Shown: positions 13,131 to 15,298 of the stretch, piece after piece
Layout of the letters: each line of letters begins with the position of its first letter
Position numbering within the stretch: position 1 is the stretch's first letter
Source of the DNA: an uncultured Chthonomonadaceae bacterium
Lineage (GTDB): Bacteria > Armatimonadota > Chthonomonadetes > Chthonomonadales > Chthonomonadaceae
Assembly (NCBI GenBank): GCA_963817895.1
Contig: CAWFQB010000008.1
Coordinates: 11,568-75,567 of the forward strand
Reading direction: 5' to 3'
Length of the DNA: 64,000 nucleotides
Translations under genes and position numbers: made by a program
The notes under the pieces: model-generated
The model's database searches: none
Seen by the model: the letters and a program-made list of their open reading frames with translations, nothing else
Told to the model about the DNA's origin: nothing

Positions 13131-14874
13131 ATTTCTCCTCTTCTCCTTTTCTCCTTTTCTCCTTTTCTTCCTCTCCGATTCGTTTCCACACCCGAACTCC
13201 GCTGCCGTTCGGGTCGGTCCAGACGGGCTGCCATTTGTCGCCATACTCGCGCAGGTAGTTGTCAAAGATTTGGCGGCTTGGTGGGACGCCCCATTGCCAC
13301 GAGTCCTGAAGCAGATAGCGGACATGATGGGGCGCGATATACGCTTTTTCCTGCGCCCGCGCGCTGGTGGTGGGTTCCAGTTGCGCGGTAACGTTACCTG
13401 CATACAGGTGCAGCAGGTATTGCGGCTTGCCCATGACAATTTGGCGCGGGTTGGAGTTTTGGCGCAGCCATGCGCAGGCAGCGTAAAACCCGGCCTCGTC
13501 GCGATTTCTGCCGAAGTCGTAACCGGCCAGTGTCGGACGATGCTCCTGCCGTATCACGCGCCAATGCACATTGGCAAAGTAGATGAGCAGCGCGGCGATA
13601 CCAATAGTTTGTACGGCGGTTACAACTGTCGCATTGGAACGCTTTTGCAGCCATTCGGACGCCTGCTCCACGCCGAGCATCAGGAACAGAATCATAAACG
13701 GGATCAGCGGAACCAGAAACCGCGCGTTTTGCCAGGGCCACATCGCCGCCACAAACCAGAACAGTATGCTGAATCCGACGGACAACTTCATGCCGCGCTT
13801 CCACGCTTCACGGATACCCACGAACATCAGCAGCGTAAGTGGCACGGCTATTATATAGAAAAGCGCCAGCCAGACGGTGCGCGGCGGAGCCATCATGTAC
13901 AGCGAAGTCCGGGGTATCAGGCCGATATAGGTGGGCAGGCCGAACTTCATGCGCGACAAAATTCCGCGCGCATTGAGCGGTATGCGTCCCGCGTCCGCCT
14001 GCATCGGGTTTTTCAGCGTGAATTGGTCTACGTAACTGGAATAGCGTATTTCCGGGTGCGCCTTCACGATATGCGAGTTGCGCTTCAGCCACCCGCCTAC
14101 CACAAGCAGCGTCACCAGCAATGCCCCCATCCCCCACTTCCACCCGAACCGCTTCCAAAACCAAACAATTTGCGCCAGCAGAAGGGCGATGCCGGAGGTT
14201 CGCATGAGGAAGGCCGTTGCTGCGCAGAGGAGAGAAAAGGAGATTTTAGATGGGGGTTGATGGTTGATAGTTGAAAGAGACTCCTCTCCTTCTTGTACCT
14301 CCTTTTCTCCTTTTCTCCTTTTCTCCTTTTCTCCTTTTCTTTCTACTAAAACAACCGACGCCAGACACAAAAACAGCAACGGCATTTCCGACATGACTTC
14401 GTTGGCGTAGGAGATCAGGGAGGGACAGGTAGCGGCGAAAAGCAGACCGGCGGCAATATAGCGGTTGGGCAGTCGGGCGCGTTTCAGGAGAGCATACAGC
14501 ATGGGCAGTGTGCCGAGCAGCAGGGCCAGCAATGTCAGTTTGACGGGAAGAATCACGCCCATTGCGTCCCGCCCCGTTATCCGCATCCAAAAAGCAATGA
14601 TGGCGGGGAAACCGGGCGGGTACAGCGTGTCGAGCGGCTGCCGAACGTCATTGAGTAGCCGTAAATCGCCGGTACGCGCCAGCGACTCGCCCAAAACCAT
14701 ATAACGCCCGGAGTCGTTGGCGACATTGAGATACGGCGTCCATTGCAGCAGCCACAGTATGACAATAATTGCGCCACACAAAGCAAACAAAAATAGCCGC
14801 GAATGAACGCGAATGAACGCGAATATAGATGCAAAGGATTTAGAAATGAAAGGCAACTCGTTTCCATTCGACAT
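13129..14874 (-). CDS. GT-C fold membrane glycosyltransferase (ArnT/PMT-like) with in-frame microsatellite insertions
   Basis: DSGRY...A.SL, YPPGFP, VMSE.P, RTSGIAL and RFLVPLIP motifs, many TM helices. Start uncertain because it overlaps the GxxExxY unit. Confidence 0.8.
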   Translation of the reverse strand: MSNGNELPFISKSFASIFAFIRVHSRLFLFALCGAIIVILWLLQWTPYLNVANDSGRYMVLGESLARTGDLRLLNDVRQPLDTLYPPGFPAIIAFWMRITGRDAMGVILPVKLTLLALLLGTLPMLYALLKRARLPNRYIAAGLLFAATCPSLISYANEVMSEMPLLFLCLASVVLVERKGEKEKRRKGEKEVQEGEESLSTINHQPPSKISFSLLCAATAFLMRTSGIALLLAQIVWFWKRFGWKWGMGALLVTLLVVGGWLKRNSHIVKAHPEIRYSSYVDQFTLKNPMQADAGRIPLNARGILSRMKFGLPTYIGLIPRTSLYMMAPPRTVWLALFYIIAVPLTLLMFVGIREAWKRGMKLSVGFSILFWFVAAMWPWQNARFLVPLIPFMILFLMLGVEQASEWLQKRSNATVVTAVQTIGIAALLIYFANVHWRVIRQEHRPTLAGYDFGRNRDEAGFYAACAWLRQNSNPRQIVMGKPQYLLHLYAGNVTAQLEPTTSARAQEKAYIAPHHVRYLLQDSWQWGVPPSRQIFDNYLREYGDKWQPVWTDPNGSGVRVWKRIGEEEKEKRRKGEEEK

Positions 14875-15298
14875 GGGGATTTTGAAAGTTGACCAGCATA
14901 GCAAGAGTGCGGTTGGTGGCGCGCAGGTAATTCAAGCACTGCGCAATGTGTATGTTGGTTAGAGACGAAACACACTTCAACTCCACAATCAGTTTACCTT
15001 CAACCAGCACATCCGCGAAATACTCGCCAATCATTTCGCCTTTGTACTCCACTTGAATGGGAACTTGCGCCTCCGCTTTCAGGCCTCGCGTCTGCAATTC
15101 CTTCACCAGAGCGCGTTCATAGAGTTTTTCCAGAAACCCCGCGCCAAGCACGTTAGAAACTTCAAACACTGCTCCAACAGTTTCTCGAAACAGCCTATCC
15201 AACTCCTGCCGCTCTTTCTGTCGGGCGCTACCATATCTGCTTCCATTGGTTTCCTCCTCATCCCATTCGCGTTCATTCGCGTTCATTCGCGGCTATTT
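14791..15298. mobile_element. Candidate mini-element: GxxExxY gene inside perfect 34-bp terminal inverted repeats
   Basis: 14791-14824 AAATAGCCGCGAATGAACGCGAATGAACGCGAAT is the exact reverse complement of 15265-15298. No target-site duplication seen. Confidence 0.65.
14840..15286 (-). CDS. GxxExxY protein (PD-(D/E)XK nuclease superfamily)
   Basis: LGAGFLEKLYERAL, YFADVLVEGKLIVELK, AQCLNYL and LVNF motifs. Confidence 0.92.
   Translation of the reverse strand: MNANEREWDEEETNGSRYGSARQKERQELDRLFRETVGAVFEVSNVLGAGFLEKLYERALVKELQTRGLKAEAQVPIQVEYKGEMIGEYFADVLVEGKLIVELKCVSSLTNIHIAQCLNYLRATNRTLAMLVNFQNPHVEWKRVAFHF

Follow-up and report, generated by a model that had tools for sequence, protein, structure and literature searches.

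The 508-bp unit at nt 14791-15298 of the window (the whole 64,000-nt stretch of DNA analysed) is best explained, with a probability of about one half, as an old cassette between dispersed three-unit repeats, in which a predicted GxxExxY nuclease would bind the units of its own arms and cut beside them, and host recombination would spread the arms. This reading starts from the observed geometry of the cassette, the dispersed repeat family, the association of gene and arms, their co-variation, the age of the site and the conserved catalytic residues. The design, a GxxExxY gene plus inverted arms, was found to be real and widespread, and it is apparently unpublished.

Organization of the cassette and neighbouring genes

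The two arms, located at nt 14791-14824 (plus strand) and nt 15265-15298 (minus strand), were 34 nt each, exact reverse complements of one another, and separated by 440 nt. They enclosed a single 148-aa ORF (nt 14840-15286, minus strand) with its ATG (nt 15286) inside the right arm, such that the arm encoded the N-terminus MNANERE; this layout, described in the original prediction, was confirmed by the sequence, the ORF list and profile scores. Based on the sequence and the genome-wide arm profile, the arm next to the downstream gene (GT-side arm) consisted of an AAAT-AGC head and three CGCGAAT units with a 10-bp period, and the arm next to manD (manD-side arm), carrying the start codon, was its exact reverse complement. 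The arms had been regarded as built from a microsatellite; instead, they possessed a fixed W-rich TAGC head followed by exactly three units, an arrangement with 173 copies in the genome. A purine-rich linker (nt 15299-15320, minus strand), delimited from the sequence and the position profile of the 173 arms, connected the manD stop with the arm.

The gene upstream of the cassette (nt 15321-16736, minus strand) encoded a mannonate dehydratase, ManD, scoring 555.8 bits with NF043051 against a cut-off of 550. The downstream gene (nt 13129-14904, minus strand) encoded a probable membrane glycosyltransferase (GT), the match to PF03901 (E 1e-4) being under the cut-off; of the setting originally assigned, manD was upheld, and the glycosyltransferase is a probable assignment from this weak match. 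Read on the minus strand, the GT-side arm was in frame with the downstream ORF and encoded part of the N-terminal tail (..FAFIRVHSRL..) of its membrane protein, as had been claimed for the 5′ end of this ORF, and an in-frame ATG at nt 14874, inside the 3′ end of the nuclease gene, was a candidate start. In several arm-free relatives, the start of the downstream gene abutted or overlapped the manD stop.

The cassette, manD and the downstream gene were all co-oriented, and a search within the cassette revealed no promoter-like site. Since the cassette follows the manD stop in the same orientation without such a site, the nuclease gene is likely co-transcribed with manD. A long stem was predicted for the cassette RNA (z -5.9), and the best Rfam score, 18.1 bits against a gathering score of 34.7 bits, indicated no known structured RNA. 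A terminator role of the arms, suggested by a weak hairpin-plus-T in each reverse arm, was rejected, 4 being found versus 2.5 expected. An out-of-frame start or frameshift was also considered owing to a strong ribosome-binding motif and an ATG 60 nt inside the gene, and was rejected because the homologues start at the arm-coded M[ND]ANERE.

Three further arms of the CGCGAAT family, all solo, were present in the window: nt 8961-8990 (plus strand; absent from the orthologous place in relative G002), nt 25511-25540 (minus strand) and a two-unit arm at nt 31900-31929 (plus strand; arm present at the orthologous place in G002). A gene-less inverted pair of CACAGAG-type arms, the word of a sister cassette on contig C6, was located at nt 48540-48676. 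Within manD (nt 16084-16147) and the downstream gene (nt 13129-14904) there were in-frame inserts of 8-mer (AGAAAAGG-type) and 7-mer repeats, which read as low-complexity loops, e.g. EKEKRRKVEE, and at which the alignments of relatives were gapped. An FAD-dependent oxidoreductase-like gene (nt 11577-12877, minus strand) was apparently split into ORFs at nt 12359-12877 and nt 11577-12551, reflecting a frameshift or an assembly error.

The predicted GxxExxY nuclease

The 148-aa protein scored 134.6 bits with TIGR04256 (GxxExxY; cut-off 35) and 136 bits with PF13366 (cut-off 22) and, on these profiles, is a full member of the GxxExxY / PDDEXK_3 family. These were its only profile matches, with no HUH (Y1) tyrosine transposase among them, and the folds matched were PD-(D/E)XK. 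In the AlphaFold2 model (pLDDT 91.4), the top Foldseek ranks were Cas4 SSO0001, lambda-type exonuclease, Hjc and AddAB (best E 4e-4), and VIA-align gave Z values of 8.4-7.8 to restriction-like folds and Cas4. These values were modest; they settle the superfamily, PD-(D/E)XK, not the function. A sequence search of solved structures returned none close (best E 0.2), and the PADLOC models returned 0 families at E 0.1, i.e. no match to a known anti-phage defence nuclease. The predicted catalytic residues E53, D92, E102-x-K104 and Q116-xxx-Y120 were conserved in 178-183 of the 185 proteins compared (D92 in 183, E102 in 182, K104 in 183). As these six residues are near-invariant, the family is likely to be catalytically active.

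A search with one query yielded 3,035 homologues at E<=1e-30, and this large orphan nuclease family would gain a concrete candidate DNA target from the arms. Of the 120 closest homologues, many had M[ND]ANERE or something close to it at the N-terminus, and the reading frame of three continued into the reverse arm; judged from these N-termini, the arm-coded start is a trait of the clade. A review of the superfamily lists the function of PF13366 as 'Unknown', with multiple transfers, and gives no DNA target or repeat association for the PDDEXK_3 / GxxExxY family in its available text (PMC3424549). Elsewhere, one passing mention of GxxExxY was found in the literature, as far as the accessible text goes, and no report linking GxxExxY/PF13366 to repeats was found in a search beyond whose reach most subscription papers and bioRxiv supplements lay.

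Dispersed arms in the source genome

With a pattern allowing two mismatches, 173 arms of the CGCGAAT family were found in the 7.48-Mb assembly of the source genome (G000, 81% complete), and reversed-pattern controls for the arm searches gave 0. Forty arms formed 20 inverted pairs within 700 bp, the studied cassette being one of them, and 133 were solo, a genome-wide dispersal of gene-less arms that supports the original interpretation. In the profile of the 173 arms, about 12 nt of A/G-rich outer flank preceded the TAGC head and exactly three CGCGAAT units at 10-bp period with two free bases as spacers, after which the arm ended abruptly. Relative to the predicted genes, 89 of the 173 arms were situated no more than 60 nt past a stop with the head facing that stop (random intergenic points, ~10%), and in 44 the head was no more than 60 nt from a downstream start (~11%). 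Decay was not significantly stronger in solo than in paired arms (1.34 vs 0.90 mismatches, p 0.12). Between the two arms of a pair, the free spacer bases matched at 60 of 80 positions versus 41.7 expected (0/5,000), suggesting that arms are corrected locally or that a stem is selected for. With arms homogenised locally within pairs, a perfect arm match needs no recent jump.

No perfect arm was found in viral contigs. An arm of the CGCGAAT family provided the stop codon of the upstream gene in 23 of the 173 cases. Usual pairing of solo arms with 7/8-mer arrays was rejected by the counts, such arrays occurring on the inner side of 7/133 and the outer side of 0/133 solo arms, and at 82/3,000 random sites. 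Arms of different families were seen to stack in one orientation in the source genome, the ACAGGAT arm being innermost in 20 of 28 stacked pairs. In one GxxExxY clade (L008, L012, L016, L027, L031, L074), the arms had the opposite orientation, ending in GGTTCA(A/G)AC beside the gene; there were 87 such arms in the source genome, and a gene of this kind was not found in the 81%-complete assembly.

Association and co-variation of genes with arms

The source genome possessed four GxxExxY genes, the other three being 37-45% identical to the studied one. All four had inverted arms, each with another word, and each word was itself dispersed; with four enzymes and four arm words, this one genome lends itself to a 4 x 4 test of specificity. 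For the small-gene control, 1,989 predicted genes with products of 100-200 aa were scored, and 14 reached an inverted-flank score of at least 36, the 4 GxxExxY genes and 10 of the other 1,985. A wider collection from relatives, two other phyla, and genome and metagenome scans comprised 248 profile matches, 63 of which were removed (27 with short flanks, 22 duplicates, 14 partial). At the same score, 106 of the 185 loci kept, an uneven sample weighted to the best matches and the clade of the studied gene, were positive, whereas the controls gave 1 positive among 289 displaced windows and 40 among 3,000 mismatched pairs of upstream and downstream flanks; the 79 loci below the score included many from the studied gene's own clade. 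These counts bear out the enrichment of inverted arms around GxxExxY genes that had been predicted.

Among the 10 non-GxxExxY matches, 4 were DUF559-like and four-helix-bundle-like genes between inverted repeats, the family names being given by eye from sequence (G000 C5:310805, C1:437952, C2:440272 and C1:1459251), as in a guild of mini-cassettes. The GxxExxY gene at L197, L199, L209 and L257 was surrounded by another inverted repeat, of the TAGTGT..GGACA type and unrelated to the arms, which possibly represents the ends of another element. At L078 (G001:C2:2993794-2995406), an insertion of ~1.3 kb split a GxxExxY gene whose CACAGAT arms were intact.

When arm classes, defined by author-set patterns with 64 rows 'none' and 18 'other', were placed on a quick maximum-likelihood tree of the proteins, 73 changes were required versus 109.7 after shuffling (0/200 as low). 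A 45-row clade had AG-ending arm words only, and 8 of the 9 CGCGAAT-type loci fell into one subclade with the studied gene, which is the clade that seeded the scan. Across phyla, and at 35-45% protein identity, the arm architecture remained specific to each enzyme clade. Together with the arm-coded starts of the closest homologues, these results agree with the expectation that the arm word co-varies with the protein clade.

The abundance of arms was also related to the presence of the gene. In 61 related genomes, one or the other of two arm words reached 10 or more copies in 17/31 gene-positive and 1/30 gene-negative ones (Fisher p 9e-6), a comparison in which kin are not independent and the threshold was chosen after the counts were known. 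Within the genus, CRCRGAT arms numbered 126 in G001, which carries such genes, versus 4 and 2 in the others, and CRCRGAG arms 84 and 149 versus 21 in G001. CGCGAAT arms numbered 154 (82 perfect) in the genome with the gene, 106 (34 perfect) in G002, which has a remnant, and 68 (1 perfect) in G001, where the gene was not found, this being a comparison of three genomes in which the changes were mostly one tolerated G>A. Despite these 68 and 106 well-kept arms, no close cognate gene was found in G001 (97% complete) or G002, the best match being 43% identical. Both the co-variation and the co-occurrence of gene and arms could also follow from simple linkage.

History of the site and mobility

Among 17 relatives with the downstream gene, manD adjoined it in 12, and none had the nuclease there. 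G001, G002 and G021 retained the GT-side arm alone at the orthologous junction (degenerate in G021), and G002 also retained the last codons of the nuclease gene; by their sequence, these junctions are half-deleted versions of the studied insertion, not clean empty sites. The repeats also rewrite host genes: one arm now serves as the N-terminal tail of the membrane protein encoded downstream and has outlived the nuclease gene in these three relatives. The other 9 of the 12 junctions had no GT-side arm, and in several of them the host genes abutted. The empty junctions anticipated earlier were found as arm-free sites in more distant relatives, whereas the closest relatives carried the half-deleted insertion. 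The manD-GT locus adds a dated site history, an arm-coded start, capture of an arm by a host gene, and persistence of an arm after gene loss.

Two public runs yielded contigs reaching from one arm of the cassette to the other, with 73 and 46 differences. One of these runs also contained manD-to-arm and arm-to-GT pieces, none of which bridged the whole locus. Contig 'skips', considered as signs of excision, likely derive from gene-less pairs elsewhere, since their short side was only 21-31 letters, all of them arm. The other three cassettes of the source genome were syntenic in G002 or G001, and one G002 cassette was absent from G000. The GxxExxY gene was found in 8 of 72,556 plasmids, 0 of 50,697 phages and 1 viral contig. 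No target duplication or precise junction was seen at manD-GT junctions, arm sites or ATPase loops, among relatives diverged to a fourfold identity of 65%, and duplicated flanks implying a precise empty site were found in 0 of 110 pairs. The original idea of a recently moved, self-mobile unit was not sustained by the half-deleted relatives, the three syntenic sister cassettes, and the plasmid and phage counts; judged from sequence comparison, the gene appears to be an old resident, not a recent jumper.

In the comparison of G002 with G000, 40 G002 stretches picked around arms contained 60 arms, of which 25 had no mappable ortholog, 21 were common to both and 14 were not (one a mis-mapping). 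From G000 to G002, 19 of 29 arms were shared, giving site differences of 14/35 and 10/29 in the two directions. At shared sites, units 1-2 were identical at 368/378 positions, a value raised by site picking, unit 3 at 122/168 and spacers at 50/84; fourfold sites in 296 genes were 65% identical between these sister species. The high identity of units 1-2 relative to spacers and fourfold sites indicates that the arms are actively kept up. Slots with a missing arm often held another repeat family (~7/13 and 8/10, counted by eye; background, 1,521 of 4,703 intergenic regions, 32%). In paralogous ATPase domains, the same loop was native, or held a solo three-unit arm with a sister word, or hybrid pairs whose left and right arms were of different families. 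Arms were retained or replaced rather than eroded. The loops in question, at G000 C1:845225, C9:83493, C10:191152 and C5:516594, held a solo arm, hybrid pairs or an 8-mer pair, and the other paralogues had short native loops.

Proposed mechanism and alternative explanations

In the preferred reading, the GxxExxY enzyme, predicted to be an active nuclease of the RecB/Cas4 type, would likely bind its own three turn-spaced units and may cut beside them. Host repair or recombination would then likely place copies of single or paired arms, and in rare cases of the entire cassette, at the junctions between genes. Many events would probably be one-sided overwrites of junctions, resulting in solo arms, hybrid pairs, and slots occupied by another repeat family in the sister species. 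DNA joining is not known as a normal activity of PD-(D/E)XK enzymes, so that insertion would need a host step. By analogy, the relation would be that of RAYT and REPINs, with one mostly vertically inherited, single-copy enzyme for each repeat family. Against the preferred reading are the arms that persist in G001 and G002 without a cognate gene, the solo arms that are not more decayed, the 79 of 185 loci below the arm score, the junctions at which neither a precise end nor a target duplication was seen, and the linkage alternative. A bolder proposal, offered tentatively, is that GxxExxY proteins constitute a new repeat-spreading class, namely sequence-specific RecB/Cas4-type nucleases that would read three turn-spaced units and overwrite junctions and loops by one-ended, host-completed events without a transposase or recombinase, their own target supplying the start codon. 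Such a class would carry the RAYT/REPIN lifestyle to a second enzyme superfamily, one unable to join DNA alone.

The swapping of families at one slot above the 32% background, the hybrid pairs, the arms persisting without a cognate gene, and the DUF559-like and four-helix-bundle-like genes between inverted repeats (4 of the 10 non-GxxExxY matches, named by eye) would also suit a shared pathway, host recombination or another enzyme, by which all mini-cassettes with flanking arms would move and junctions would be overwritten; the GxxExxY gene would then be cargo with another job, co-varying with its arms through linkage. This is rather unlikely, as clade-specific arm architecture was kept across phyla at low protein identity, the catalytic residues are near-invariant, and arm abundance tracks the cognate gene within the genus. 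Somewhat less probable again is a service to the host, with arms as selected binding sites or RNA elements, in line with the proposal made for the Geobacter class 2 sites, and the GxxExxY protein as a domesticated reader or unrelated. The boundary positions and fixed polarity of the arms relative to stops and starts, the conservation of arm cores at orthologous sites, the 10-bp phasing, which suits a DNA-binding array, and the long stem of the cassette RNA favour it. However, about a third of the mappable sites differ between two sister species, the neighbours of arms are functionally unrelated, some arms lie inside protein loops, no Rfam match reached the gathering score, and neither gene nor arms are present in half of the relatives.

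A recent arrival at the manD-GT junction of an IS-like minimal element, autonomous and moving by itself, would explain the perfect arms around one intact gene, the arm-free junctions in 9 of 12 relatives, and the patchy distribution, including the G002 cassette missing from G000. It is nevertheless improbable given one copy per clade, the half-deleted insertion in three relatives, the related strains whose cassettes carry 46 and 73 differences, the syntenic sister cassettes and the near-absence from plasmids, phages and viral contigs, while local homogenisation within pairs accounts for perfect arms without recency. Chance or an assembly artefact, for which nothing speaks except the low complexity of the arms, was refuted by the displaced-window, mismatched-pair and small-gene controls, by independent contigs spanning arm to arm, and by the reversed-pattern controls.

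Comparison with known systems

The comparison with RAYT genes and their REPs made in the original prediction proved to be the right one. As far as the available text of the reports on RAYT-REPIN systems (REPtrons) and TIR-flanked RAYTs extends (PMC3116915, 10.1101/2021.07.10.451892, PMC3733652), the two systems have in common that a small enzyme gene, present in a single copy, lies between copies of its own repeat, that one genome holds several such pairs of enzyme and repeat, that further copies are dispersed outside genes, that inheritance is mostly vertical and that plasmids are nearly free of them. Where the RAYT gene is lost, the repeats become fewer and less perfect, according to the accessible part of 10.1101/2021.07.10.451892; the falling arm counts and perfect copies in the three genomes compared here may reflect a similar trend, the changes being mostly one tolerated G>A. 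However, RAYT is an HUH tyrosine transposase, whereas the cassette enzyme is modelled with a PD-(D/E)XK hydrolase fold; REPs are palindromes, whereas the arms are three direct units; and REPINs are mainly inverted doublets with decayed singlets, whereas only 40 of the 173 arms were paired and solo arms were not more decayed. In addition, the arm can code the start of its own enzyme. The cassette thus works in a RAYT-REPIN-like way yet is no member of that system, having another enzyme class, non-palindromic arms and mostly singlets.

Like MITEs and IS elements, the cassette has inverted ends around one gene and gene-less derivatives, but it lacks a DDE, HUH or recombinase gene and a multi-copy gene, no target duplication was seen, the interiors of gene-less pairs were mutually unrelated, and the copies were mostly one-ended. 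Cas4, lambda-type exonucleases, the nuclease domains of RecB/AddAB, and Hjc share with the modelled enzyme the fold and the E..D..ExK..QxxxY pattern, QxxxY being a label used for the RecB family. They differ from it by an identity of only 11-21% (best Z 8.4) and in that the cassette enzyme has no Fe-S cluster or helicase partner. A PD-(D/E)XK nuclease of a transposon, Tn7 TnsA, is described in the accessible text of PMC3424549. Other orphan repeats appear in the available parts of PMC2996986 and PMC4679880.

The class 2 sites of Geobacter metallireducens, gene-less inverted pairs published as putative IHF/HU sites (PMC2700814), consist of three tandem units whose consensus, TCTCCGTS[Y], is the reverse of the CACGGAG-type arm at L002/L024. 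Like the cassette arms, they are inverted pairs with a variable spacer between genes, and no link to a nuclease was made in that publication (PMC2700814). The mechanism proposed here would account for such published orphan repeats. One Geobacter pair, I219A/B at 3,661,657-3,662,095 of G. metallireducens, is 438 bp apart, which is cassette-sized, and the table, in the part available, names no gene inside it (PMC2700814).
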